Source: a virus (Duplodnaviria > Caudoviricetes). From it: a DNA stretch of 53,983 bases. The stretch spans positions 1 through 53,983 of the IMG/VR virus record IMGVR_UViG_3300027985_001102; one strand, given 5' to 3'. How positions within the stretch are numbered: position 1 is the first letter of the stretch; each line of letters begins with the position of its first letter. The translations under genes were made by a program, and so were the position numbers. Below the pieces are notes generated by a model that saw nothing but the letters and a program-made list of their open reading frames with translations, ran no database searches and had not been told where the DNA came from. Shown piece by piece: positions 2,986-24,708 of the stretch.

Positions 2986-3993
2986 TCAGGTGGTCACCTG
3001 GACCACGGGGATGCAGGCGTACCCAGCGCCCGCGGTGAATGCCGAGGTGATTCGGTCGAATTGAATCTCCGACCCCTCGACCAAGAGCAATGCTTGGAAG
3101 CCTACGTTGTCGTTCAACTCTCCACCGAGCGTGCCAGCAACATCACCAGTCACGAGGGTGGCAGCGACATCACCAGATGCGCCGCCGAGCAAGTCACCTC
3201 CGGTCTCGTATCCGGTGATGTTCGTGGACAGGCCAATCGCACTGGCAGTGCCTCCGGTGAATCCCGTCTCGACCTCCCAGTACGGGAAGCCAGCGAGCCG
3301 CAGCGCGAACCCTGCTGGGATGGTCTCGATCGCCTCGCCATCCGTGTTGGCGTAGGAGATCGGAATCTTCATGATGAATGCCTTGTCAGCGCGCACCCAC
3401 CTACCCGTGCCAGCGGCAGGGACTTGCACGAGCTCATCAGCCGTATCCTCCGCTGCGGTACCATCTGCGTCGAACACCCAGTGCGAGTAATCGGACTGGA
3501 CAACGACCTCCATGCCCTCGTATCGATTGGCCGCTGCAATGGCCTTGAGGGCGGTTCTGGTGGCCACGGTAGACGCTGCTACGTAGGCCTTTCCACCGAT
3601 CTCAAGCTCGACTTCAACCTTGTCTCCCACGACGCCATGGGTCTTGATCGTTCCAAGAACATTCTCGAAGTTGGCAGCGGATGCGGCAGAGATAGCGACG
3701 GCCCGCGAGGTTGCGTCAGCCGTCACCTTCTGACCAGGTGTCAGCGTCTCACCAGCGAAAACCCAAGCCCTACCGTCGCACTGGTAGCTCTGGGTCATTC
3801 CGTTGGCAATAGTCTCAACCGAGACGCCGCAAATCGAATCTGTGGCAGCAGTGGCGAGCTCGATGCCATCAATGTTCGTGCCGTCATCCTTGAGGATGTA
3901 GCCAGCAGCGATATCAGAACCAGAGCCGTTGTATCCGTTTCGATCTAGGCTAGGGAATGTCTGTGTGCGTGGTTGCGTGACGTAGTTGGCCAT
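2986..3993 (-). CDS. Capsid decoration/cement protein (DUF2190-like N-terminus) with extra C-terminal domains
   Basis: AGETLTPGQKVTADATSRAV motif; lies between scaffold and capsid genes. Confidence 0.65.
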   Translation of the reverse strand: MANYVTQPRTQTFPSLDRNGYNGSGSDIAAGYILKDDGTNIDGIELATAATDSICGVSVETIANGMTQSYQCDGRAWVFAGETLTPGQKVTADATSRAVAISAASAANFENVLGTIKTHGVVGDKVEVELEIGGKAYVAASTVATRTALKAIAAANRYEGMEVVVQSDYSHWVFDADGTAAEDTADELVQVPAAGTGRWVRADKAFIMKIPISYANTDGEAIETIPAGFALRLAGFPYWEVETGFTGGTASAIGLSTNITGYETGGDLLGGASGDVAATLVTGDVAGTLGGELNDNVGFQALLLVEGSEIQFDRITSAFTAGAGYACIPVVQVTT

Positions 3994-4002
3994 GTCGATT
4001 CC

Positions 4003-5628
4003 TCAGTTGGAGCCCGCAAGCCACTTGCCGGCCGTTCGGACCTGGTTGATTCGATCGAGAGAAGCGAAGTCGGGCATTTCCTTCCGCAGGTACCCCATGG
4101 CCTTCTCGATATCGTTTGCCCCATGAAAATCTCGACACATCGCAATCCGCTCAGGACTGCGACCATCCGTGCGAGGAGGGGAAGAAAGCACCGGCTGTGA
4201 CAACGGCGCAGATTGCAAATTACCGTGTTGGTCGGCTTGGAGACCGAATTGCGATCCGCCTGAACCAGCGAAGATTCGACGAGTGAGTAGCGCCCGGTCT
4301 GCTGGCGGAAGGGGATATGTGTCACGGAACTCGGCGAGCTTTCGTTCCTGCTCCTTGGGGTCCTTGTCGATGCATCCCTTGCGCATCGCCAGAATCGCGG
4401 GTCGGAGCTCATCAGCAGCAACCTTTGCCGCGGATTTGCTGGGCAAATTCATCTTTGCGACGCGCGAAGCCACTACCGCCTCAGCCTCCGCTTCGGCGTC
4501 CTGCTCATCCACCTTGCCAATCCGCTCCATTGCAGCGGCAAGCTGGGTGACAATCTCGCCCATTCCGCTGGTCTTCTCGACCAAACCCTTGGCTGCAGCG
4601 ATTGCCGCCTGGAAGTCGGACGCGCCAAGGATATTCATCAGCGTATCCATTGCGTCTGCGCTTGCTTGCACCTTCTCGGCAGCCGCCAGGATGGTGTCGT
4701 CATGCTCGTTCACTCGGAATGTGGCTGCGAGTCGCTTGGTCAGTGGCATCTGAGTCTCCGCGCTGGTTCCCGCGCTAGTCGCGGGCTGCTGTGTACTTGG
4801 ATCATACGAGAGGGACGCAGTGGCTGTGCTCAGCACCTCATCGCGAGTCGATAGTGCAGGCATGGCAAACAGCCGCTTCAGACTTGCCAGCATGTAATCC
4901 AGGTCGACACCTTCGATCCCAACGCCGCCAGTGAGCAGTTCCCCAAACCGCTGCAGTTGCTCACCTACCGCCAACGCGTCAGCATCGAGCGGAAGCCCGA
5001 AGATCTCGCGCATGCCGATCAGCGCCTGCTCGGGTGTTTCGGCCTTGTCCACCCACACAGACATTGATGCCGCAATCGAGATAGGAACCATCCCCTGAAG
5101 GAACGGGTCGTTTGTGAATGCGATCGAGGTCAGTGTCGGCCCCATGTCCTCACCTGTCACGGGATGGTTCCAGTGGGGTTCCACAGCCACACTCGTCCAC
5201 TGGTATTCAGGCGGATCGGCGGTGATTTGCCCGAGGATTGTCTTGCCAAGCTTTGCGAGCGCCCAAAGCTGGACACCGTCTTCACCCTCTCGGATTTCAA
5301 GGTCCTGAACCCACGCTGGAGCCGGCACGCCCTTTTCTGGAATTGACCCAACCCGCGGGTCCAACTCGCTCGCGTGCTCATAATCAAAGTGCACGACATT
5401 GGCGGACCCAACACCATCATCTCCAGCCTTGAACGAAGGATGTGCACGAAAGTTCTTGATCAGGTGCTCGAACAGCGCCCGGTCAAACGTGATCGGTCGG
5501 CCACGGTAAACGAACTGCCCTTCGTAGGCCACTTGGATCCATCGCGGATTCTTTTCGGTGGCAGATTCAATTGCCGCAAGACGAACACCTCGACCGAATA
5601 GACGCGGAAACTGGCGAGAAGAAGGCAT
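4003..5628 (-). CDS. Mu gpI-like prohead protease with C-terminal scaffold (probable internal start at 4749)
   Basis: FDYEHAS, PAPAWV, EYQWTS, SIAFTNDPFLQGM motifs; internal GGAG-N6-ATG at MPLTKRL. Confidence 0.85.
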   Translation of the reverse strand: MPSSRQFPRLFGRGVRLAAIESATEKNPRWIQVAYEGQFVYRGRPITFDRALFEHLIKNFRAHPSFKAGDDGVGSANVVHFDYEHASELDPRVGSIPEKGVPAPAWVQDLEIREGEDGVQLWALAKLGKTILGQITADPPEYQWTSVAVEPHWNHPVTGEDMGPTLTSIAFTNDPFLQGMVPISIAASMSVWVDKAETPEQALIGMREIFGLPLDADALAVGEQLQRFGELLTGGVGIEGVDLDYMLASLKRLFAMPALSTRDEVLSTATASLSYDPSTQQPATSAGTSAETQMPLTKRLAATFRVNEHDDTILAAAEKVQASADAMDTLMNILGASDFQAAIAAAKGLVEKTSGMGEIVTQLAAAMERIGKVDEQDAEAEAEAVVASRVAKMNLPSKSAAKVAADELRPAILAMRKGCIDKDPKEQERKLAEFRDTYPLPPADRALLTRRIFAGSGGSQFGLQADQHGNLQSAPLSQPVLSSPPRTDGRSPERIAMCRDFHGANDIEKAMGYLRKEMPDFASLDRINQVRTAGKWLAGSN

Positions 5629-8432: not shown

Positions 8433-8600
8433 TCACTTCTCTTTCGGTTTGATCCACCCACGAGCTTCGAATTCGCGTCGGGCTTCGTTCAGTCGAATCC
8501 TCAAACCGTCTTGTGTCAACTCAGTGGACAGCCGTTTGCGGATTTCTACACGAAGTTCGGACTTCAACTTTTCTAACGCCTCAGCCACCTTTTCAGCCAT
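8433..8600 (-). CDS. Small helical hypothetical protein (55 aa, MAEKVAEALEKLK...)
   Basis: Starts at the TGATG overlap with the terL stop; GGAGG RBS. Confidence 0.55.
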   Translation of the reverse strand: MAEKVAEALEKLKSELRVEIRKRLSTELTQDGLRIRLNEARREFEARGWIKPKEK

Positions 8601-10006
8601 CAAAAACCTCCAAGGCTTCGATTCTGTCTTGGGCCCGAAACCTTCACGTCGATCGTCTGCCCCCCGCCTGCCACAAGGGCATCAAAGGCGGCAGCCAGAG
8701 CGTCGACCTGGTCATCGTGCAGGTCCTTGACCCCTGTGAATCCAAGCACTTCCTTCAACAATTCTGCAACCCATGGCGCATCCCGTGGAACGAATATCTT
8801 GCCACGATTCCACGCTGCTGCAACTGGTTGTGCGCGGATGAGCTTGTCCACTGTTGCTGGAATCGCGCGTAACATCCTGGCCCCTTCGTTTCGAATGTGC
8901 TGAGCCACGCCCTTTTCGGGCCCGGCCATGTACCACCACATGGGCGATCCAGGCCATGCCACCGACATTCCATTGAGAATCTTGCTGAAAGCTGGGGAAT
9001 CTATCTGGACTCGGTGAACCAGCAGCACGTAGTACTGGGTGTCGACGATCCTTCCGGTGGTGTCCCGAATGTCGTAGGCAGCAAGAGCAAGCCCTACAGA
9101 ATAGTCAGATTTCTTGTTCTCGGAATATGCACAGTCCACACCGATCGCAACCCGGTACCCGCCTGGAGGCAGCTCGTCGTACAGATGAGCGTCACGGAAT
9201 ACTTTCGAGCCCTTAGGGCGTGGATTGCCCTGAAACAACGATTCCCAATCGTAGTCAGACTTTGCCCGTTTCGCTTCCCACCACGCAGCGGGACGCATCG
9301 ACTCCCACAGGTAGGTGCCGTCGAGAGCCAGTGCCGGAAGGTTGATAAGCTTCATCGGGGCATCCCCATCGGGATCCGACTGGCGGCCGATCAAGTCGTC
9401 TTCATGCCAACGATGGTGGTTGATGAAAGTGGACGAACCAGGATGAAGTCGTCCTTGGATCGAGGTGAACCATGAGTGGACTGCTTCCCGTCGGACGGGG
9501 GATTCCGCCTCGGCCCTGGACTTGTGTGGATCATCAATGACGATCCACCCGTCGATTCCCTCACCAGTGAGCGGACCACCAATCCCCGCCGCGATCACGC
9601 TCCCACCTTCCACCGTCTTCCAGTACCCGGAGGATTGGCACAAGGGATCGATGTGGGCCCTAGCACGCTTGGCATACTCGAGAATCGTGCGCGACTTCCG
9701 TTCAGCAATCGTCGCTGAATAGGAGATGTACGCGTTCTTCTTCGTGGGGTTCCGCGCTATGAAACGAGCGAAAGCCGAGAACAACGCCTCGGACTTTCCG
9801 ACCTGTGGAGGAGCTGAGAAGCAGGCCTCAACGGGTTCGTGGAACGCTCGTTCCACCTCATCAAGAATGGGGGAGAGATGATGGGGTCGCTCGTAGCTGG
9901 GGTTGATGTGTTGGACAAAATTGACCAACGGCATGCCGTCGATTTCGGCAAGCCTTCGTCGCAGTTCGAGCTCAGCTTCAGCTCTTGTCGCCAGATCCAC
10001 GAGCAA
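8600..10006 (-). CDS. terL: Terminase large subunit
   Basis: Walker A PPQVGKS, Walker B IVIDDP, HRWHEDDL, C-terminal nuclease HDDQVDA. Confidence 0.95.
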   Translation of the reverse strand: MLVDLATRAEAELELRRRLAEIDGMPLVNFVQHINPSYERPHHLSPILDEVERAFHEPVEACFSAPPQVGKSEALFSAFARFIARNPTKKNAYISYSATIAERKSRTILEYAKRARAHIDPLCQSSGYWKTVEGGSVIAAGIGGPLTGEGIDGWIVIDDPHKSRAEAESPVRREAVHSWFTSIQGRLHPGSSTFINHHRWHEDDLIGRQSDPDGDAPMKLINLPALALDGTYLWESMRPAAWWEAKRAKSDYDWESLFQGNPRPKGSKVFRDAHLYDELPPGGYRVAIGVDCAYSENKKSDYSVGLALAAYDIRDTTGRIVDTQYYVLLVHRVQIDSPAFSKILNGMSVAWPGSPMWWYMAGPEKGVAQHIRNEGARMLRAIPATVDKLIRAQPVAAAWNRGKIFVPRDAPWVAELLKEVLGFTGVKDLHDDQVDALAAAFDALVAGGGQTIDVKVSGPRQNRSLGGF

Positions 10007-10391
10007 TTGCCTCGAGCTCTTCGATAGTCAACGCCGCGAAGTCTATCTTTACTGGTCCTCCGCCAGCGCCAGTGTGCTCTACCGACATTCTTGTCTTGCC
10101 TCCGTGTCGCTCTGGGAATCGGCGTTCAAGCAGCCACTTAGCATGTTCTGGGCCATAACGCTTATCCGATGTCGCTCGCATCACAATCATGGAGAGCTCC
10201 GCTTCAAATTGCGCCTGTGCCTTCTCTATAGATTCAGTAAACGCCTTCCGTTTTGGGTCACTGAGCCACATATAGTAAGATGATCTCGATATTCCCACCA
10301 GGGCACAAGCAGTGGAAGCTGGCACTCCACTGGCGATTAGGGCGCATATGTTTTCTTGCATCTTAGGTGAGAGACGAGTTTTCCTTGCCAC
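9978..10391 (-). CDS. terS: Terminase small subunit
   Basis: HTH (ACALVGISRSSYYMW), AKWLLERRFPE and VEHTGAGGGPV motifs; directly upstream of terL. Confidence 0.85.
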   Translation of the reverse strand: MARKTRLSPKMQENICALIASGVPASTACALVGISRSSYYMWLSDPKRKAFTESIEKAQAQFEAELSMIVMRATSDKRYGPEHAKWLLERRFPERHGGKTRMSVEHTGAGGGPVKIDFAALTIEELEAIARGSGDKS

Positions 10392-10396
10392 CGTTC

Positions 10397-10404
10397 GATC
10401 CTAC
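10397..10404 (-). promoter_or_regulatory. Late leaderless promoter -10 box GTAGGATC (same motif at 5634-5641, 8316-8323, 44578-44585, 53346-53353)
   Basis: GTANGATC lies 4-5 nt before the start codon of five structural-block first genes. Confidence 0.7.
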
Positions 10405-10410
10405 CTTCCT

Positions 10411-10426
10411 CGGCCCACGAATTGCA
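10411..10426 (+). promoter_or_regulatory. Sigma54 (-24/-12) promoter for HTH paralog 1
   Basis: CGGCCCACGAATTGCA = GG-N10-GC with TTGCA; predicted +1 about 10437, ATG at 10439. Confidence 0.7.
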
Positions 10427-10438
10427 CCAGGATAGATC

Positions 10439-10714
10439 ATGAAGCGACAACCACGCGAAGGCTCTCTAGCCGTGGCTTTGGGGGCATGCTTGCGTGCGCC
10501 CGATGAACGTCTGGTGCAAGCAGCCATGCTGGTGATTGCGGAGGCGCTGGAGGGATCTGATGGGGTAGCCACCCGTGCTGCCGCGCGCCTAGGCGTACCG
10601 GAGCGCACGTTCCGAAAATGGTTGGCGCAAAGCCCCTCCTTGCAAGCGATGCGCAGCAAGATCCAGCAAAAACGCGACGGTAAGAACATATCCCACCGTG
10701 TGGTACCTCAATAA
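10439..10714 (+). CDS. Stand-alone Fis-type HTH protein, paralog 1
   Basis: EALEGSDGVATRAAARLGVPERTFRKWL resembles the HTH_8 domain of enhancer-binding proteins; paralog at 28712. Confidence 0.8.
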   Translation: MKRQPREGSLAVALGACLRAPDERLVQAAMLVIAEALEGSDGVATRAAARLGVPERTFRKWLAQSPSLQAMRSKIQQKRDGKNISHRVVPQ

Positions 10715-10853
10715 AACCAATACGTTACTGTATAGCTGTGCATGTTTTGCGGAACCCGTGACACCCATGTCATTGGTGTTACAGTGGGATTAGATGCCAT
10801 GAGCGAACTTACGAGAGGTTACACGACATGTCTAGCTAGGCATGGGTCATGCA
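10715..10853 (+). promoter_or_regulatory. Sigma54 promoter region 1b: IHF-like boxes, palindromes at 10759-10772 and 10829-10842, -24/-12 element at 10838-10853
   Basis: AACCAATACGTTA (one mismatch to WATCAANNNNTTR); TGACA-CCCA-TGTCA; TTACGAGAGGTTAC; AGGCATGGGTCATGCA. Confidence 0.7.
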
Positions 10854-10865
10854 GCTTCATGTGGC

Positions 10866-11171
10866 ATGACCATAACCATCACCATTACGAATGAAATCCG
10901 CAACCTGGCTGAATCCCTCACTGGAGCAAGTCTCGCGCGTCGTGATGGGCTTGTCTGGCATCACTCTGCCACTGTCCGTTTGGGAACACGATGCCCACTG
11001 GTTGTCGATCTGAGATGCTGTGTGGGGGTCAAGAAATGGGCTACAAATGTTGGGAAGGCGCTCTCCAACAAGGGGATGCGTGTCCATGTTGGCAAGTGCG
11101 TTCGGACCTACAGGGACCATTCAACCATGCCAGATGGATGGTGTTGCCTCGTTTCGATTCTAGGGCTCTGA
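10866..11171 (+). CDS. Hypothetical Cys-rich basic protein (101 aa)
   Basis: ATG falls about 2 nt after the predicted sigma54 +1; first gene of a two-gene operon. Confidence 0.55.
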   Translation: MTITITITNEIRNLAESLTGASLARRDGLVWHHSATVRLGTRCPLVVDLRCCVGVKKWATNVGKALSNKGMRVHVGKCVRTYRDHSTMPDGWCCLVSILGL

Positions 11172-11182
11172 AAGGATGGGCA

Positions 11183-11587
11183 ATGAAAACCGTAAAAAAC
11201 GAAACCGAAGACCGGCCTGCTGTACTCGTGTCCACGTGCCTCATGGGTGTAGCATGCCGCTACCACGGTCGACCATGCGCCACGCATAGCCGAATCCGAG
11301 GCATGCTTGACGCTGGCCGCGTGCGACTTGTGCCGGTATGCCCGGAGGTGTCGGGTGGGTTGCCTGTGCCTCGTCCGCCTACCCGCCCCAAGGATGGTCG
11401 GCTCTGGTGCGGCGGGGAGGACGTCACCGAGGCGTTTGAGGCGGGGGCGCAGGAAGCGCTTCGTGTTGCGGTGGAGTGCGGAGCGAAGAAAGCCTACCTG
11501 GTACGAGGGTCCCCTTCTTGTGACCGTGATAAGGGTGTAGCAGCAAGGCTGCTACAGGCGCATGGCATCAAAGTCATCCGGATTTAG
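11183..11587 (+). CDS. DUF523 / TudS-like (thiouracil desulfidase family) Fe-S protein
   Basis: VLVSTCLMGVACRYHG, CPEVSGGLPVPRPP, DVTEAFEAGA, SPSC motifs; AAAGGA RBS. Confidence 0.88.
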   Translation: MKTVKNETEDRPAVLVSTCLMGVACRYHGRPCATHSRIRGMLDAGRVRLVPVCPEVSGGLPVPRPPTRPKDGRLWCGGEDVTEAFEAGAQEALRVAVECGAKKAYLVRGSPSCDRDKGVAARLLQAHGIKVIRI

Positions 11588-12845
11588 CCAACTTCTTCTG
11601 ACCACCCCGCACCAGATCATCGAATGAACGTGGCCCACTTCCGCCGTCTGGTTGCATAGGCCCGAGACGTTTTTCCCACCGGCGGATGTCATCAGCCAGC
11701 CCTGGGTAGTTGTGTTGCAAAGCAGCAGCCTGCAAGCCACATTGGCCGGGGCAGCACCAGCACGCCGTTCGAATGAAGCCGCGCTTGTATCCATCCCATA
11801 GCGGTACTCCACTGGATTCAATGATCTGGTCTTCTGTCGCCTTCTTGGTCGCAAAGCATGGCGCAAAGTGCTGGTACTTGTCACTCTTGGACCCAAGCGA
11901 CTGCAAAGCGCTTCGCTCTGTTTTTCGACTACCCAAATTGGCTTCTTCTGCTCGTGAACCAGTAAGCACCACCGTCGTTCCTTCGGGATGCTGTCGTACA
12001 TATGTACCGAAGGTGCGGTGGATCATGTCGTTGGCGCATGGCCGATAGATGATACTGGGCCATCGCCCCTCTTGCGCCAACCATGCCCACCAATCCCGCT
12101 GTGGCTTGAGTACTACACATTCCGCATGAAGGAATACTGCCACGTCGTACACATGCGCTGAAATGCCAGGGAATTCCACACCTGGATCCACGAATGCCAA
12201 CTGAAAACGTTTACCAGTCGCGTGTTTCGATGCCCAAAGCGCGGCGGCAGTGGAGTCTTTTCCACCGGAAAACTGGACGATTACGTCGGTTGCATTCTCC
12301 CATGTAGGCTCCAACCAAGCTGGCATGTCGAAGAAACCATCTGCGTCTTTCCACTCGTGCACATGTTGTCGTGGGAATGTCTGCCTCTGTTTTCGTATCT
12401 GCTCGAGCAACTTCGCGGTGGCGCTTGCATCGTGTCCAGTCCCACGCAAGTCTCCCCTTTGTGCCTGTATCTCTGCTAGTAGCTCATGCAATCGCTCCGG
12501 ATCGGGCTTGGCTCTGGCTGCTGTGGCATTGTCGGCCACCATAATGCGAATGGCAGTGTCGTCGTCAACGTCTACGTAATCGACATCGATTTCTGTCAAT
12601 CCCTCAGCCTTCGCAGCCATGTAGCGGTGGTTTCCAACCAGCACATGCCCAGAGCTCTGCTGCACCACGATCGACCCGTAGAAGCCGTTCTCTACCACTG
12701 ATTCCCTTACCGAATCCACATCTCCTTTGTTGTAGTTTCGCGGGTGAAGACTTATCAAGTCCAAGCCTACTCTCGCATGGCTCACATTCACGACACTGGC
12801 CTTCGCGTGTTGTGTGTCCAGTTTGTTCGGTTTATGCCCTACCAT
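11574..12845 (-). CDS. ParB/Srx-like N-terminal domain fused to PAPS-reductase-family (DndC/SspD-like PP-loop) domain
   Basis: HPRNYN, VLVGNHRYMAA, ADN (ParB-like); FSGGKDS, DPGVEFP, GSRAEE, Y.RGF.RTACWCCP (PAPS reductase). Confidence 0.88.
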   Translation of the reverse strand: MVGHKPNKLDTQHAKASVVNVSHARVGLDLISLHPRNYNKGDVDSVRESVVENGFYGSIVVQQSSGHVLVGNHRYMAAKAEGLTEIDVDYVDVDDDTAIRIMVADNATAARAKPDPERLHELLAEIQAQRGDLRGTGHDASATAKLLEQIRKQRQTFPRQHVHEWKDADGFFDMPAWLEPTWENATDVIVQFSGGKDSTAAALWASKHATGKRFQLAFVDPGVEFPGISAHVYDVAVFLHAECVVLKPQRDWWAWLAQEGRWPSIIYRPCANDMIHRTFGTYVRQHPEGTTVVLTGSRAEEANLGSRKTERSALQSLGSKSDKYQHFAPCFATKKATEDQIIESSGVPLWDGYKRGFIRTACWCCPGQCGLQAAALQHNYPGLADDIRRWEKRLGPMQPDGGSGPRSFDDLVRGGQKKLAKSG

Positions 12846-14108: not shown

Positions 14109-15479
14109 TTACGCTGCTTGTGTGCGCATCTTGCAGTACGCCATTGCCCAATCTGCTGGTGCCAGATAGCTATGAGGGATCGGCTTCCCCTGCATCCACT
14201 CAATGATCCCCCGCTTCGTTTTCTTGTCACGCAGATAGACCTTGATCTCATAATAGGCACCTACTGACTGCATGACCATTTTCCCCTTCAGGTCGAGCGC
14301 ACTTCTTGTCCAAGATTGGGCTAGACCATCCGCCCAAGTGATGAGTCGCGGGTCTGGTTCGTCCGTCAACTCTCGCGCACACTCAAACGCCAGTTGCCGA
14401 CGAATGGCAGTGATGTCGGCCTCGCGCTGGTCGCCCATGACCTTCGTTCCATCCTCCGAGAACATGGGGATTTGGTCTGGACTTGGCCTTGGTGGGCAAC
14501 GGAACTTCCTTGTCGCAACGGACTCGTACAGGTCCATTTTGGCCTTACGAATCGCCTCTTCCGTCGCCAGCTGCGTGGCCTCGTCCCGCTCCTTCGCTTC
14601 ACGTTCAATCCGCTCTTGCTCGGTGAGCAGATTGGTTGCTAGATTGTCTACGTTGGCGAGCTTCGCGCTCAGGGAAGCGATCTTTGCGTCGGTGTGCTTC
14701 GCCAGGATCATCACCAGCGAGTCGTCATCTTCGACGATGGGCTTGGTCGGCCCGTGCCGGTAAGCGAGATACACCGCGATGACCTCGTCCATGATGTCGT
14801 CGGCCTTGTCAGTCTCGCACCGGCGGATGACTCTCAGGGCGTTTCGTTCGTCCAGGTAGTAGGCGGTGACCTCACGCTCTTCGATGCCCTTCACAGCCCC
14901 ACGTTTTTCGATGCGATCCATATGGATCGCATGCAAAACCCCTGGGATTTTGCCACTTTCGTCGAGTCGCTTGATGAGCTTCCGGATGCTTCGTGGCTGG
15001 TCGAACCCGAGCCGTTCCGCCAACACGATATCCAAGATCCTCGGTTCTGGGTCGCCCTCGAACTGCTCCATGTGCCAGCCGTTCAGCACGATGGCTTTGG
15101 AGGTGGGGGCTGTAGCCTCCACTGGCTCAACCACTTCCGCTTCGACAGGCGCTTCGACAGTCTTCGATTGTGTCTTCATTGCCTCTTTACCTCCCAGCCA
15201 ACGAATCACCTTGCTGATGTCGACCACGTTGCCCTTGCTCTTCGCCACGACGTGGATGAGCGGCAGGTGCCACCCTGACACCATCGCAGCGATAGTGTTC
15301 TCGTTGCCATTGATGCCTACGGTGTTTAGGATTGCCACCTCGGCACCCTCGTGGATAGCCTGGTGGAGCTCGCAGTACCGCACCCACGAGACCACCTTGA
15401 TGCCCTCAGCGCCAAGCCTGTTGGCGAGTAGGCGCTTGGCCGATCCGATGTCATTGGCGATTACGATTGCTCTACACAT
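14109..15479 (-). CDS. Antirepressor-like protein (DNA-binding domain plus coiled coil); starts at 15479, with a second RBS/ATG at 15179
   Basis: PRILDIVLAERLGFDQPRSIRKLIKR...YYLDERNALRV..RCETDKA motif of phage antirepressor-like proteins; GGAGG/GAGG before MKTQ. Confidence 0.65.
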   Translation of the reverse strand: MCRAIVIANDIGSAKRLLANRLGAEGIKVVSWVRYCELHQAIHEGAEVAILNTVGINGNENTIAAMVSGWHLPLIHVVAKSKGNVVDISKVIRWLGGKEAMKTQSKTVEAPVEAEVVEPVEATAPTSKAIVLNGWHMEQFEGDPEPRILDIVLAERLGFDQPRSIRKLIKRLDESGKIPGVLHAIHMDRIEKRGAVKGIEEREVTAYYLDERNALRVIRRCETDKADDIMDEVIAVYLAYRHGPTKPIVEDDDSLVMILAKHTDAKIASLSAKLANVDNLATNLLTEQERIEREAKERDEATQLATEEAIRKAKMDLYESVATRKFRCPPRPSPDQIPMFSEDGTKVMGDQREADITAIRRQLAFECARELTDEPDPRLITWADGLAQSWTRSALDLKGKMVMQSVGAYYEIKVYLRDKKTKRGIIEWMQGKPIPHSYLAPADWAMAYCKMRTQAA

Positions 15480-16067
15480 GTTGTTTCGCGCTCCTTGCGA
15501 TAGAGATAAGCAGATCCCTGAACTCTGTTGGTGTGGCCGCTGCCTGTTTCGGGGATAGCCTCTGACGCTCGTCGTCTGTTTGGGTTCGGTTTCGGCACAG
15601 GGATACGAGCGCATTTGTCCGAAGCCCAGATCCCCACCGCATCGATGGCAGGTCGACACCATTCGCGTACACGTTGCCTTGCGGGCTGGATGCCCGTACC
15701 GGCCTTGCTCGACGTGACATGTCCATCCTCCCAGATAGTCCGCGTTCACCCATCCGCCTGTGGCCGGAGGCACATTCAGACCGTACGTCCCCCACGCGTC
15801 GGAATATGCTGGGTGCTCCAAGACGCCGCCCCACCTACGCACGGAGTCCAACGCCGACGCAAAACACCCACCGTCTACTCCTCGCAGGTACCCATAGCGT
15901 GCCTCCACGAGCCCCGCCAGACGGCACCACCGCGTGCATGGGGGGTGCGCTACGACAGGATGGGGACCAGGATACAATCGCGCGTCCCTGGATTCGTCCC
16001 ATAGGTCCACCCCAGTTAGGCCGGAGTATGACCCTTTTGGATCGACGAAGAGAGCGGCTACAAGCAT
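15472..16067 (-). pseudogene. Phage DNA cytosine-methyltransferase-like gene, frameshifted at about 15670
   Basis: VAALFV, VVAHPPC, VLEHP, GHPARKAT in one frame; YANGVDLPSMRWG...TPTEFRDLLISIARS in another frame. Confidence 0.7.
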
Positions 16068-18338: not shown

Positions 18339-18745
18339 CTCGCCTCGGTCAGTCTCCGGGCGTCATTGAGGGCTGCTGCGAGTTCGGCAACGGAATGAAA
18401 CTCGTACACAAGAGCACCGAACTTCCTTGCCTCTGCGATCCAGGCTCGTTGGGATGGACGAAGCTTCCCCTTGCCGGTCTTTGCTTCAAAGCATACCCAG
18501 CGACCTCGAGGAGCGAGCATCCCGCAGATATCTGGGATGCCGTTGGGGGCAGCGCGACCAGGCATCCCGTCGATGAAAGGCTGGATCTTCCAGCCCCAAA
18601 AGTCGGGCTGCTGGGCCAAGAACTGGAGCCCTTCGCGCACCAGCACAGTGTGCCTTCGGTTGCGGCAAGACCTGCACGGGCAGCCGTTTGGGTGGATGCG
18701 ATCGGCTCGTGTTCGGCGGATAGGGCTTACTGTTGTGCCGTTCAT
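18335..18745 (-). CDS. VRR-NUC / Holliday junction resolvase-like nuclease
   Basis: GIPDI...FEAKT.KGKLRPSQRAW. Confidence 0.85.
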   Translation of the reverse strand: MNGTTVSPIRRTRADRIHPNGCPCRSCRNRRHTVLVREGLQFLAQQPDFWGWKIQPFIDGMPGRAAPNGIPDICGMLAPRGRWVCFEAKTGKGKLRPSQRAWIAEARKFGALVYEFHSVAELAAALNDARRLTEAR

Positions 18746-20103
18746 AGCCCTTGCCATCCTCCGGCTCGTTCCACGAGCGCGTTTGAGGGGTAGTGGTGAA
18801 ACTGAGAGAGGAACCGCATCTGGACAATCTTTCGTCCGTTGCGCTTCCCAGTCTTCGATACGGTCCGCTTTGCTGACTGAATCGCTTCAGCAACGAACCG
18901 AACCACTTGCGGCGGGTACTTCGCCGCTCGCGAGGCTTTGGCGAGCTCAACAGCGCGATCCTGGACGCGCCGGTCGACCTTGCCGCGTTTGATTGCCCCG
19001 CATGACGGGCAGACGTTGTCTGTGAATTCGTTCGCTCGAAATACCCGCCCGCAAGCGTCGCAGGTCACCTGCGCTGGAAGCTTCGATCCCGTCGCCATGG
19101 CCTTGCCTGAGAGCGAGAAGTCACGGTCGTCATCTGGCAATCCGTGGAGGTGAGTCGCTCCCATCAGGTCGAGGACGCGAGCGAACGTCTTGCCTGGTGC
19201 GGGTCGGAGGACGCGGCCTGTCTTTTGCACGAGGCTCCCTGGGGACGCGCACCTGGTGCCGAGGATGGCTAGGAATGCGTCGGGTACGTCGAGCCCTTCG
19301 GTCAGCACGTGCACGCCAACGAGCACACGGAGCGACCCAAGTCGGAATCGCTCAATGAGGATGGCTCGGACTGCGGAGGGCGTGCTCTGTGTGATGCACG
19401 CCGATGGGACACCAAGCCGGTCGAGCCGGTGGGCAATGTCGTTTCCTGCCTTGATCGATCCTGGAAACACGATTGCCTTACGTTTTTCGCCATCAACGAC
19501 GCCGAACTTCAGGTAGCCTTTGACCGGATCCATGGCGAGCGTCTTGCTGACCGAATCAGGACGGTAGACCTCGACGGGGACGAGGTAACCCTGGTCGATT
19601 AGCTCGCGAGGCTGGGCAACGACGATCAAGTCCTCGAACTGCTCAAGCCCGGAGCCATCACCACGTTCGGGGGTGGCGGTGAACCCGAAGATGGTGGCGC
19701 CCTTGTAGGCCGCAACAAGGCTCCCCCATTCCGTGTCCTCGCGCGGATAGTGGTGCGCCTCGTCTACGATCACGAACGATGCTGTGGGGAGCTCCCGGCC
19801 GAGCAAGGTCTGCGTGCTGGCGACCTGGATCCGTGCGCCGGGCTTGGGGGTGACGCCGGCCTTGATGATCCCGACATCAAGCCCTAGAGCCCTCAGCTTG
19901 TCGGCAGCCTGGTCGACGAGCTCTGTGCGGTGGGCCAGCACAAGCCCTCGACCGCCCTTGCTTATGGCGGATTCTGCAAGGGCCGAAAACATAACAGTCT
20001 TGCCCGCACCGGTCGGAGCCACGAGCAGGATCGCACGGTTGCCCTTAGCGTAGCTATCGCGAGCCATCTCGATAGCCCTGACCTGGTATGGGCGGAGCTG
20101 CAC
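18742..20103 (-). CDS. SF2 DEAH helicase with C-terminal zinc finger
   Basis: LRPYQ, APTGAGKT, DEAHH, TATP, LTEGLDVP, QKTGRVLR, CDAC/CPSC. Confidence 0.92.
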   Translation of the reverse strand: MQLRPYQVRAIEMARDSYAKGNRAILLVAPTGAGKTVMFSALAESAISKGGRGLVLAHRTELVDQAADKLRALGLDVGIIKAGVTPKPGARIQVASTQTLLGRELPTASFVIVDEAHHYPREDTEWGSLVAAYKGATIFGFTATPERGDGSGLEQFEDLIVVAQPRELIDQGYLVPVEVYRPDSVSKTLAMDPVKGYLKFGVVDGEKRKAIVFPGSIKAGNDIAHRLDRLGVPSACITQSTPSAVRAILIERFRLGSLRVLVGVHVLTEGLDVPDAFLAILGTRCASPGSLVQKTGRVLRPAPGKTFARVLDLMGATHLHGLPDDDRDFSLSGKAMATGSKLPAQVTCDACGRVFRANEFTDNVCPSCGAIKRGKVDRRVQDRAVELAKASRAAKYPPQVVRFVAEAIQSAKRTVSKTGKRNGRKIVQMRFLSQFHHYPSNALVERAGGWQGL

Positions 20104-23145: not shown

Positions 23146-24708
23146 ATGCGTAAAATCAGCAAGATCACCGTTCGCAACTACCGAGGAATCGAAGAGCTCG
23201 ACCTGGACGTTTCGCCAGCAGGAGCAATCGCCAAAGGACGTAACGGTGCAGGGAAAACCACCCTACTGAAGGCCGTGAAGGCGTGCTTGCTCGCTCAGGA
23301 TGTGGGCTCCGACGCAATTCGAAAGGGGGCTAACAAGTCCGAGATCCTGGTGGACATTGATGACCTGCAGGTTAGGAGGGTCATTACCGAAAAAGGGAGC
23401 CGTCTCGACGTCGGTAAGGGCGAATTCCTTGTCAAGGCACCCCAAACGTACCTGAAGGAGCTGTTGGGGACTTCGACCTTGGATCCGATGGATCTGCTCA
23501 TGTTGAAGGGCAAAGAGCGCCGAGCAAAGGTCCTTGCAGCCCTTCCAGTAACAGTGACAGTGGAGCAGCTCCGCAAGTGGTGGGACAAGTGTCCAGACAA
23601 CTACGACTGCAGTGGACATGGACTCGACGTGATCGCGACGGTGCGCGACATGGCCTACAGAAAGAGAACGGACACGAACAGGGTCGTAAAAGAAGCAGAG
23701 CAAGCCTTGCGTCAGGCTCGTCGGGTGGCCGAATCTATTGTGGCTCCGGACGCCGAACCCAACCTTGACCACTTGCAGAATGTGGCCGACGCCGCTCGAG
23801 CAGCGGCGACAGGGCTCCGGTCCAGGCATGCCGAGGCTGAGCGTCAGATCGAGGCTATGTCTGGCAATAGGTCCAAAGTGGAATCGCTTCGAGCCAAGGC
23901 GGATGCTATTCGCGCCGAGGCCAAACCCGTTGCTGAAGAAGAAATTGAACATGCGACCGAAGCGGTTCACGAGTCGCGCGATGCGGTGGCAAGGCTTCGC
24001 GCGCAGCTCGAGTCCGCCGAAATCACGCTACGCAATTGCGAGCGTGCTGCAATCGGGCTGCACGCGGAAAATGAGAGATACGAGTCGGCTATTGAGCAGG
24101 CTAGGGGGATTGAGCAACAAGCCGATGAGCTTGAGTCGGCCATTGAATCGGCGATGATCCGACCCGTCGCAGGGGTCGAGATTGCAGCTGCAGAGCTTGA
24201 AGCCCATACCGCACAAGACGCTCTCGCCCAAGCCAGAGCGGATGCCGCTCGGATCCGTGAGGCAAGTGCAGCCAAGAAGGTGCTGCTTCTCGCAGAGGAA
24301 AACGCGAGCAAGGCAAAAGGGGAGGCCGAAAGGCTTGACTCCATTGTCAAAGCGCTTACCAACGATGCGCCAGCCGAACTGCTTGCGGCCGCAGACGGGA
24401 TCCAAGGTCTCACCATCGATGGGGACGAGGTGCTCCTTGATGGGGTTCGGCTCGACGCTTTGTGCGGCGCGGAGCAGATCCGTTTCTGCGTTGAGGTCGC
24501 TCGACGCGCAAATGAAAAGTCAAAGATTCTGATCTGCGATGGTCTCGAACGGCTCGACCCTGAAGCTATGGACGTGTTTGTTCAGGAAGCAACTCGTGGT
24601 GGGTACCAGTTGCTTGCCACCCGTGTGGACAGGGGGGACGTGGTCATTGAAGCAATCGAATCTGGACCGGTCGAGTCGGAAGCTACAGAAGAAAGGGCGG
24701 TGGCGTGA
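23146..24708 (+). CDS. SMC/Rad50-like AAA ATPase with long coiled coil
   Basis: VRNYRGI, GRNGAGKT, LCGAEQ signature, ILICDGLERLD. Confidence 0.85.
   Translation: MRKISKITVRNYRGIEELDLDVSPAGAIAKGRNGAGKTTLLKAVKACLLAQDVGSDAIRKGANKSEILVDIDDLQVRRVITEKGSRLDVGKGEFLVKAPQTYLKELLGTSTLDPMDLLMLKGKERRAKVLAALPVTVTVEQLRKWWDKCPDNYDCSGHGLDVIATVRDMAYRKRTDTNRVVKEAEQALRQARRVAESIVAPDAEPNLDHLQNVADAARAAATGLRSRHAEAERQIEAMSGNRSKVESLRAKADAIRAEAKPVAEEEIEHATEAVHESRDAVARLRAQLESAEITLRNCERAAIGLHAENERYESAIEQARGIEQQADELESAIESAMIRPVAGVEIAAAELEAHTAQDALAQARADAARIREASAAKKVLLLAEENASKAKGEAERLDSIVKALTNDAPAELLAAADGIQGLTIDGDEVLLDGVRLDALCGAEQIRFCVEVARRANEKSKILICDGLERLDPEAMDVFVQEATRGGYQLLATRVDRGDVVIEAIESGPVESEATEERAVA

Follow-up and report, generated by a model that had tools for sequence, protein, structure and literature searches.

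What would a tailed virus do with a gene that joins a ParB-like domain to a domain of the 3′-phosphoadenosine 5′-phosphosulfate (PAPS) reductase type, when that gene runs into a gene for a DUF523/TudS protein? The question is raised by positions 11183-12845 of IMG/VR virus record IMGVR_UViG_3300027985_001102, which is complete, has direct terminal repeats and measures 53,983 bp; we analysed it whole and call it the window. A first-pass annotation of the same DNA, read from its letters alone, had made these domain calls and described the two genes as convergent and overlapping. Pfam, PHROG, PDB profile and Foldseek searches confirmed the domains of both genes, and the overlap is as described. 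Our tentative answer, to which we give slightly less than even weight on the basis of sequence and analogy, is that the pair forms a module that would put sulfur into viral DNA after replication, with the TudS partner supplying sulfide.

11574-12845, minus strand: fusion gene, 423 amino acids (aa), ParB_N plus PP-loop domain of the PAPS-reductase fold (open reading frame (ORF) list, Pfam, PHROG 723 and 424, AlphaFold2, Foldseek).
11183-11587, plus strand: short-form TudS/DUF523 gene, 134 aa (PF04463, alignment to PDB 6z92, conservation in 61 relatives).
11574-11587: overlap of the convergent 3′ ends, 14 nucleotides (nt) (ORF coordinates).

The first-pass annotation had suggested looking for the pair elsewhere, and co-occurrence beyond this genome was found in both directions. 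A fusion-protein profile was run against three sequence collections and a DUF523 profile against one, and every locus was then searched in six frames with hidden Markov models (HMMs). The limits were of our own choosing: 140 and 165 bits for the PP-loop HMM, a rule of 600 nt for the flanks, and simple ORF calls within loci.

Viral contigs, fusion query, 80 loci: DUF523 adjacent in 9 of the 10 with a PP-loop score of at least 165 bits, plus L049 (truncated copy).
Viral contigs, DUF523 query, 19 loci: fusion adjacent in 17; the remaining 2 end at the DUF523 gene (contig edge).
Prokaryote genome contigs, 22 loci: pair in 21.
Metagenome contigs, 80 loci: pair in 60.

Pooled, 128 retrieved loci had a PP-loop score of at least 140 bits, and DUF523 was adjacent in 108. 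At 90% identity there were 79 clusters, 66 of them with the pair. Among the 13 pairless clusters, the 3′ side is shorter than 600 nt in 6, only the 3′ side is visible in 5, and both sides are visible in 2. The closest relatives without DUF523 (L123 and L126) are cut on the 5′ side, which is where their sisters L124 and L125 carry it. No replacement sulfur-handling gene stood out in the loci lacking DUF523, most of which end at a contig edge. The two loci with both flanks visible differ in content: L144 (3884-6529) has a 477-aa cysteine-rich fusion followed by ORFs of 92 and 310 aa, and L196 (3944-4714) has a 257-aa PP-loop protein with SGGIDS and no ParB. By record title, the genome contigs belong to metagenome-assembled genomes of Akkermansia, Planctomycetota, Verrucomicrobiales, Bacillota and others, and to one Methanosarcinales archaeon.

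Since DUF523 is present in only 28 of 50,697 phage records, lambda-like phages among them, its repeated adjacency to the fusion gene is not chance. Nor is the linkage due to shared descent of one virus lineage, because the surrounding packaging genes belong to different families, both for the terminase (Terminase_3, Terminase_6C, TerL_ATPase/nuclease) and for the portal (Phage_portal, Phage_portal_2, Portal_Mu). In the 61 non-redundant pairs whose domains are nearly complete, pairwise identity has a median of 31% in the PP-loop domain and 41% in DUF523. The fusion protein and its partner co-diverge: their identity matrices correlate (Mantel r 0.45), to a degree that none of 999 permutations reached. 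The 61 loci share no third conserved gene; only terminases, portals and methyltransferases recur in them. These observations support the view that the two genes are a functional pair and a conserved, self-contained module carried by tailed viruses that infect bacteria and archaea.

Two unrelated auxiliary metabolic genes might also have come to travel together, one a CysH-like booster of sulfate assimilation and the other a TudS that salvages thiouracil nucleotides. Both halves have precedent in the available text of the sources cited: accounts of phage PAPS reductases usually treat them as auxiliary metabolic genes for sulfur assimilation, and they are routinely annotated as helpers of it (PMC8879888; PMC12323421), their true role having been called unresolved (PMC11437467), and stand-alone TudS is a salvage enzyme (PMC10611767). 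We nevertheless find mere co-travel very improbable. The adjacency persists at the identities given above, in three gene orders (44 of the 61 pairs convergent, 14 co-directional, 3 divergent) and with different packaging modules, and DUF523 was found in 0 of 69 viral loci with PAPS reductases of other types, mostly without ParB. The two proteins themselves, described below, add to this.

The module also occurs in a cultured virus. At the DNA level, the 50,697 phage records gave a single match, to 116 nt of the CWCC region in Methanoculleus virus Blf4/L4768, and tblastn found the full-length fusion in only 2 of those records, both of them Blf4/L4768. Its gp05 is a ParB-PP-loop fusion (280 and 118 bits with the two HMMs that we built) and gp06 is the DUF523 partner (113 bits); the genes are co-directional and directly precede terL (gp07).

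Blf4/L4768 (locus L203, NC_074642), 3874-5118: gp05, fusion gene (HMM match).
Blf4/L4768 (locus L203, NC_074642), 3418-3828: gp06, DUF523 gene (HMM match).

In the record, gp05 is annotated as "DNA modification methylase", with no methyltransferase domain seen, and gp06 as "hypothetical". We take this to be a likely case of misannotation in a cultured archaeal virus. A term check of the full text of the Blf4 paper found PAPS, ParB and sulfur unmentioned (PMC8540584).

What kind of enzyme is the fusion protein? A homologue search returned 58 full-length relatives at E<1e-30, and the following features could be placed.

12366-12797, minus strand: ParB/Srx-type N-terminal domain, residues ~17-160 (PHROG 723; conserved N37 and G71-H72-x-R74).
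11661-12302, minus strand: PP-loop ATP-pyrophosphatase domain, PAPS-reductase fold, residues ~182-395 (PF01507, PHROG 424, PADLOC SspD, Foldseek).
12252-12269, minus strand: PP-loop motif SGGKDS, residues 193-198 (read from the sequence).
12036-12038, minus strand: Cys270 codon (YRPC), first of three conserved cysteines (kept in 61 of 61 linked and 20 of 20 non-linked viral homologues).
11751-11762, minus strand: codons C362-W-C364-C365 (RTACWCCP; C362 and C365 kept in 61 of 61, C364 in 46 of 61).

The ParB_N match in Pfam falls slightly under its cut-off (E 7.5e-5, 23.1 bits against 26.3). We accept the domain because three other searches agree on it: PHROG 723 over residues 17-160 (6.9e-30), a PDB profile search with a profile of 32 relatives (ParB/Spo0J/Noc at ~1e-10), and Foldseek, which matched the N-terminal domain of the model to ParB CTPases. 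Columns G71, H72 and R74 are invariant or nearly so in the alignment of relatives. By sequence and predicted fold this is a ParB/Srx N-terminal domain.

The rest of the protein matches PAPS_reduct (PF01507, residues 188-367, E 1.2e-7, 32.4 bits against a cut-off of 22.5) and PHROG 424 (residues 182-395, 2.7e-27). The AlphaFold2 model, built with 32 relatives, has a mean predicted local distance difference test score of 86.1. Its nearest solved folds in Foldseek are adenosine 5′-phosphosulfate (APS)/PAPS reductases, with template modelling scores, normalised to the target, of 0.67 (2goy_B), 0.64 (1sur) and 0.63 (7rge). The PAPS domain of FAD synthase also matched, and the [4Fe-4S] thiolases TtuA and NcsA matched lower, at ~1e-4; the PDB profile search matched the [4Fe-4S] PP-loop thiolase class at 5e-3. 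In PADLOC, the best defence-family match was SspD (E 3.1e-13, 48.1 bits, residues 189-393 against positions 3-201 of a 277-position profile), and the BrxP model gave 0.0043. Neither the DndC model (NCBIfam, PADLOC) nor the CysH model (NCBIfam) matched at E<=0.01; NCBIfam gave only far-sub-threshold matches to archaeal PAPS-reductase-like "hypothetical" families.

The motifs read by the first-pass annotation (SGGKDS, an RPC cysteine and CWCCP) are all in the sequence, but not every cysteine in them is a family feature. Each of the S, G, G, D and S residues of SGGxDS is kept in all 61 non-redundant relatives, and so are C270, C362 and C365, which are also kept in the 20 non-linked viral PAPS reductases. 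C364 is kept in 46 of the 61 and C369 in 17. Since C364 is variable, the family signature is C...CxxC, with three cysteines rather than four.

CysH carries its C-terminal catalytic cysteine in an ECGLH-type tail. The fusion protein has no cysteine C-terminal to C369, and that region of the alignment has no conserved one, so a counterpart of the CysH catalytic cysteine is lacking. Judged on its residues, the protein is not a CysH-type reductase, even though these reductases are its closest solved folds and share PF01507. Identity to them is ~11-17%, and the ParB fusion and the viral DNA-modification context set it further apart. The ParB_N domain and the missing cysteine both argue against a sulfate-assimilation gene. 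The three invariant cysteines probably hold a [4Fe-4S] cluster with one free iron, by analogy with TtuA/NcsA and with DndC, a PP-loop enzyme whose 4Fe-4S centre sits on three cysteines (PMC10853773, in the text available).

The DUF523 gene lies within a longer ORF (10991-11587, plus strand), and all homologues start at the internal ATG at 11183, which has a ribosome-binding site candidate of its own.

11171-11176, plus strand: AAAGGA Shine-Dalgarno-like site, 6 nt upstream of ATG 11183.

The 134-aa product is a clear DUF523/TudS member (PF04463, E 1.2e-24, 87.3 bits against a cut-off of 34.7), predicted to be a desulfidase, and it aligns to TudS (PDB 6z92) at E 1.1e-15. All three Cys motifs are kept, as first noted, and most of the residues that serve TudS have equivalents. 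The TudS roles given here come from docking (PMC10611767, in part), as does that of Tyr110 on the ribose.

C19, C53 and C113: TudS Cys10, Cys43 and Cys104, cluster; each kept in 61 of 61.
E55: TudS Glu45, catalytic; kept in 61 of 61.
S110: TudS Ser101, catalytic; kept in 61 of 61.
S112: TudS Ser103, catalytic; kept in 44 of 61, the window protein included.
P111: TudS Pro102, base stacking; kept in 61 of 61.
R26: TudS Arg17, phosphate contact; kept in 56 of 61.
Y27: TudS Tyr18, stacking on base and ribose; Y or W in 60 of 61.

The differences from TudS are equally consistent. The window protein is ~30 residues shorter, and it and 21 other short-form proteins have lost the loop after SPSC that carries Tyr110, together with the C-terminal helix. 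Where TudS has Val16 and Asp19, the linked proteins have Cys25 (59 of 61) and His28 (57 of 61). A quick tree of 287 DUF523 proteins (midpoint root, support from the Shimodaira-Hasegawa-like approximate likelihood ratio test only) separates 59 of the 61 linked members from a clade of 181 rows that has 87% support. This clade, the main cellular one, contains 150 of the 158 database sequences without the subfamily signature, including all those named from cultured bacteria. We therefore classify the partner, from its sequence, as a shortened TudS subfamily whose genes adjoin ParB-PP-loop genes in viruses; its separation from the cellular clade also argues against a salvage enzyme that merely travels along.

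Among the 150 best DUF523 representatives, 10 long proteins that we picked were fusions to NUDIX, histidine phosphatase, CCA-adding enzyme (PolyA_pol) or PNP/UDP phosphorylase domains, or had duplicated DUF523. The cellular fusions (P0293, P0344, P0308, P0297) fit a nucleotide and tRNA salvage setting for canonical TudS. A functional parallel is RudS, a TudS-DUF1722 protein that removes the 4-thiouridine (s4U) modification of tRNA. There a TudS unit gains a polymer substrate through a partner domain, and this also happens in phages, as in the "viral" RudS of Escherichia phage 1H12; viral RudS genes number only ten in the portion of that report available (PMC11417400). Unlike RudS, the window protein has no DUF1722, and a ParB-PP-loop protein encoded by another gene is its partner; less than half of the window protein aligns with the E. 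coli phage copies.

How, then, might the two proteins work together? In the reading that we prefer, the PP-loop domain, using ATP, would adenylate an oxygen of DNA, and a hydrosulfide on the free iron of its cluster would displace AMP. The TudS partner would provide sulfide by stripping it from thiouridine nucleotides, for example 4-thio-uridine monophosphate (4-thio-UMP) from tRNA turnover. A virus that harvests sulfide in this way would need no cysteine desulfurase. The first-pass annotation saw none in the genome, and none is among the 25 of 29 matched Pfam families listed for the 66 window proteins, nor are DNA polymerase or methyltransferase families; the lack of a DNA polymerase there leads us to favour post-replicative modification. 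What we infer in all of this is that both proteins hold Fe-S clusters, that DNA is the target, that the atom transferred is sulfur, and which way it flows.

Sulfur is the likely atom, since characterised members of both families handle it at an open-site cluster. The characterised DUF523 members named in the available text are desulfidases of thiouracil, 4-thio-UMP or s4U-tRNA (PMC11417400; PMC10611767), and TudS passes through a [4Fe-5S] intermediate (PMC10611767). That state corresponds to the sulfide-on-iron form that PP-loop/[4Fe-4S] thiolases are thought to use. Thiolases of the TtuA/NcsA/TtcA class likewise combine a PP-loop with a three-cysteine cluster and activate sulfide against an adenylated pyrimidine, in the descriptions available. 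The fusion protein belongs to another PP-loop subfamily with another cysteine spacing, and its target would presumably be DNA, reached through ParB_N, rather than tRNA.

DNA is the likely target because of the ParB likeness to methyltransferase fusions, the slot upstream of the terminase and the methyltransferase neighbours in related loci. The ParB part is 39-51% identical to that of 27 homologue matches, 22 of which carry an N6_N4 methyltransferase (PF01555), and the fusion protein also matches PHROG 498 "DNA methyltransferase" (6.6e-21). ParB_N is presumably the DNA-targeting part, because it is of the type carried by phage ParB-methyltransferases. Those fusions occupy the same genomic slot upstream of the terminase. 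They differ in that the catalytic domain here is a PP-loop/Fe-S domain rather than an S-adenosylmethionine-dependent methyltransferase, and in that it needs a second gene. In the window the pair stands just upstream of terS and terL, the terminase genes following downstream on the minus strand, and one large-terminase (TerL) cluster lies within 4 kb in 26 of the 61 related loci. The earlier placement of the pair upstream of the terminase, among ParB fusions that modify DNA, is borne out by both the ParB homologues and the neighbouring genes.

9978-10391, minus strand: terS (Sf6_terminase / Terminase_6C in Pfam and PHROG 4102 / 38 for the terS-terL pair).
8600-10006, minus strand: terL (same matches).

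In 11 of the 61 loci the pair sits beside intact methyltransferases, either ParB-N6/N4 (8) or MT-A70 (3), and other viral PAPS reductases adjoin C5 and N6/N4 methyltransferases. These loci also bear on a further argument of the first-pass annotation, that a sulfur mark could be the active anti-restriction mark because both methyltransferases of this genome are frameshifted. We found no methyltransferase domain or fragment in the window, a weak negative, since the genome search used also missed the PF01507 domain that hmmscan found there. With no remnants recovered and intact methyltransferases beside the pair in related loci, that argument is not supported. What was taken for a remnant may have been the 652-aa ORF described below.

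A ParB-like partner is not peculiar to this module. The IbrA/IbrB type pairs a PAPS reductase plus DUF3440 with a ParB-like protein, and we know of no DUF523 link for that family. An ESM Atlas neighbour cluster of the fusion protein carries PAPS_reduct, DUF3440 and ParB_N (score 0.85, a lead only). The fusion protein itself lacks DUF3440 (no PF11922 match at E<=0.01 in Pfam). Other ESM Atlas neighbours are archaeal clusters in which a similar PAPS_reduct is fused to a class-V aminotransferase of the cysteine-desulfurase type (73 members, again a lead only) or joined to ferredoxin-type 4Fe-4S domains or PUA. We regard them as leads for sulfur- and RNA-linked roles in this PAPS_reduct branch.

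Which oxygen would be replaced? We lean slightly towards a pyrimidine base carbonyl rather than the backbone phosphate, because the partner's pocket suits a thio-pyrimidine nucleotide and because the extra proteins on which Dnd and Ssp depend are absent. DndC is likewise a PAPS-reductase-family PP-loop ATP pyrophosphatase that acts on DNA (PMC10853773, in part). The fusion protein differs from it in matching no DndC model and in having ParB fused, where Dnd has a separate DndB; no DndA, DndD or DndE genes lie near the window pair. Across the window, PADLOC matched single proteins to the PbeA model (best 1.1e-23) and, weakly, to DndD (2.7e-7). These are probably the superfamily 2 (SF2) helicase at 18745-20103 and an ATPase at 23146-24705 like those of structural maintenance of chromosomes (SMC) proteins; the second, the sole DndD-like match, is assigned by guess and lies ~10 kb off. 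Both matches may amount to no more than the general likeness among helicases and ATPases.

The SspD match suggests a relative rather than a clear member of that family. SspD and BrxP of BREX type 4 are PAPS-reductase-type enzymes tied to DNA phosphorothioation, in the available text (PMC12914056; PMC12839542), and the fusion protein lacks the DUF4007 and the ferredoxin-like extension described for BrxP (PMC12839542). SspA (a cysteine desulfurase), SspB and SspC were all absent from the PADLOC families listed for the window (25 of 69) and from the Pfam families listed. In place of the cysteine desulfurase that serves Ssp and BREX type 4, the window's sulfur partner is a TudS-type protein.

A more specific form of the preferred reading takes the lean towards a base to its conclusion. 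The module would write a thio-nucleobase, such as a 4-thio or 2-thio pyrimidine, in double-stranded viral DNA through a sulfur relay of two [4Fe-4S] clusters, each with a free iron, and with no cysteine desulfurase. The TudS-type protein would hand sulfur from host thiouridine to the DNA-tethered PP-loop enzyme, or work in reverse as its donor. For viruses of anaerobic bacteria and methanogens, such a mark would be a signal of self-identity or a means against restriction. We give this version a real but small chance.

Several points weigh against DNA thiolation by the pair. Gut, rumen-type, sludge and biogas sources are frequent in the record titles and contig names; with free sulfide abundant there, a virus may not need to harvest thionucleotides. 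The three-cysteine site is also kept by other viral PAPS reductases that have no DUF523, so the core reaction does not need the partner. The SspD and PAPS_reduct matches are weak (48 and 32 bits), and at E<=0.01 the DndC and CysH models gave nothing. The 150 best DUF523 representatives, 10 of the long ones being checked for PAPS_reduct, yielded no ParB-PAPS-DUF523 fusion. A complex prediction for the fusion protein and DUF523 scored 0.00 and counts neither way. PP-loop enzymes also do non-sulfur chemistry, and QueC, GMP synthase and TilS/MesJ are among the weak matches of this one. Finally, convergent overlapping genes, found in 44 of the 61 pairs, are unusual for two proteins acting as one complex; the layout suggests separate timing, and a role for the partner as eraser or antidote fits it at least as well.

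We take the layout first. In a writer-eraser arrangement, the fusion protein would thiolate nucleic acid and the TudS partner would remove the same mark where it is unwanted: from host DNA or RNA, from the nucleotide pool, or from prophage DNA in lysogeny. The partner would then be a proofreader or antidote, made from its own promoter at a different time. In 41 of the 44 convergent pairs the 3′ ends overlap by at most 71 nt or stand at most 15 nt apart, an arrangement with a promoter for each gene and possible mutual interference. The window offers a local version of this. Its DUF523 gene may be part of a small plus-strand unit inside minus-strand operons, an island with a helix-turn-helix (HTH) ORF and a promoter-like site, and the fusion transcript has a terminator-like site.

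10439-10714, plus strand: ORF of 91 aa between terS and DUF523 (Fis-type HTH_8 match, 2.9e-5).
10363-10689, minus strand: ORF without match, overlapping the plus-strand HTH_8 ORF.
10758-10785, plus strand: promoter-like site (sequence scan).
10699-10677, minus strand: terminator-like site (sequence scan).
11218-11202, minus strand: terminator-like site for the fusion transcript (sequence scan).

The partner also retains the full hydrolytic set of TudS, with the equivalents of Glu45 and Ser101 and the base- and phosphate-binding residues. Loss of the Tyr110 loop would open its pocket to a base within a polymer, and RudS demonstrates that a polymer, in its case tRNA, is within reach of a TudS domain supplied with a binding domain (PMC11417400, in part). 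Set against this, the promoter and terminator scans of the window gave no more matches than the shuffled expectation, and no regulator is conserved with the pair in the 61 loci. The 14 co-directional pairs, and the genes of the lytic Blf4, which run one way into terL, resemble co-expression instead. Making and removing one mark would also be costly unless the two acts were separated in time or target. On balance we judge writer plus eraser unlikely.

The other alternative concerns the chemistry itself. The PP-loop domain might adenylate a DNA base or another substrate for attack by nitrogen or some other nucleophile, as TilS, GMP synthase and QueC do, perhaps jointly with a DUF523 cluster acting as a Lewis acid for hydration or elimination on a substrate that is not a thiocarbonyl. 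The matches to QueC (8e-5), GMP synthase (1e-4) and MesJ/TilS are consistent with this, and a role outside sulfur metabolism has been suggested for PAPS-reductase homologues of mobile elements (PMC11437467, in part). The linked DUF523 proteins have their own Cys25 and His28 and two deletions, so their substrate may differ from that of TudS. We still regard non-sulfur chemistry as distinctly unlikely. Every characterised DUF523 member named above is a desulfidase, and the Glu45 and Ser101 equivalents are kept in 61 of 61 linked proteins (that of Ser103 in 44). On the side of the fusion protein, sulfur enzymes are what the PP-loop domain most resembles, both in fold and among the defence families, and a three-cysteine site is typical of PP-loop enzymes that insert sulfur.

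The wider genome is that of a temperate tailed virus, judging by Pfam matches to an integrase, a Mu-type portal, a Mu F protein and baseplate J. Further matches are to a DnaB-type helicase, an SF2 helicase and a DUF3799 nuclease. The 652-aa ORF at 14109-16067 (minus strand) matches PHROG 12600, of unknown function, over its first ~138 residues (1.1e-44) and no Pfam family.

Our searches of the literature, which covered openly available papers, found no described link between DUF523/TudS and PAPS reductase, and no description of the module itself. To our knowledge, Dnd, Ssp and BREX type 4 all take their sulfur from a cysteine desulfurase. The phosphorothioate backbone that these three systems make is the one known form of sulfur in natural DNA (PMC12914056, available part), and the accessible part of a reappraisal of Dnd does not treat a ParB-PP-loop/TudS module (PMC10853773). 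The parts of the module belong to known families; the combination, the partner and the architecture appear to be new within PP-loop/Fe-S sulfur modification of nucleic acids.

For one large clade of phage "PAPS reductases", the analysis provides a fixed partner of known chemistry, from a family of Fe-S desulfidases specific for thiocarbonyls, along with a presumed DNA-targeting domain and a cultured test system in Blf4 gp05/gp06. If our preferred reading is true, these viruses would mark DNA with sulfur in a new way, or draw the sulfur for it from a new source, and a common annotation in viromes of gut, sludge and sediment would be corrected. The enzymology of TudS would then extend from salvage to the conflict between viruses and their hosts. 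Should the mark prove to be a thiobase, it would be the first natural one in DNA.

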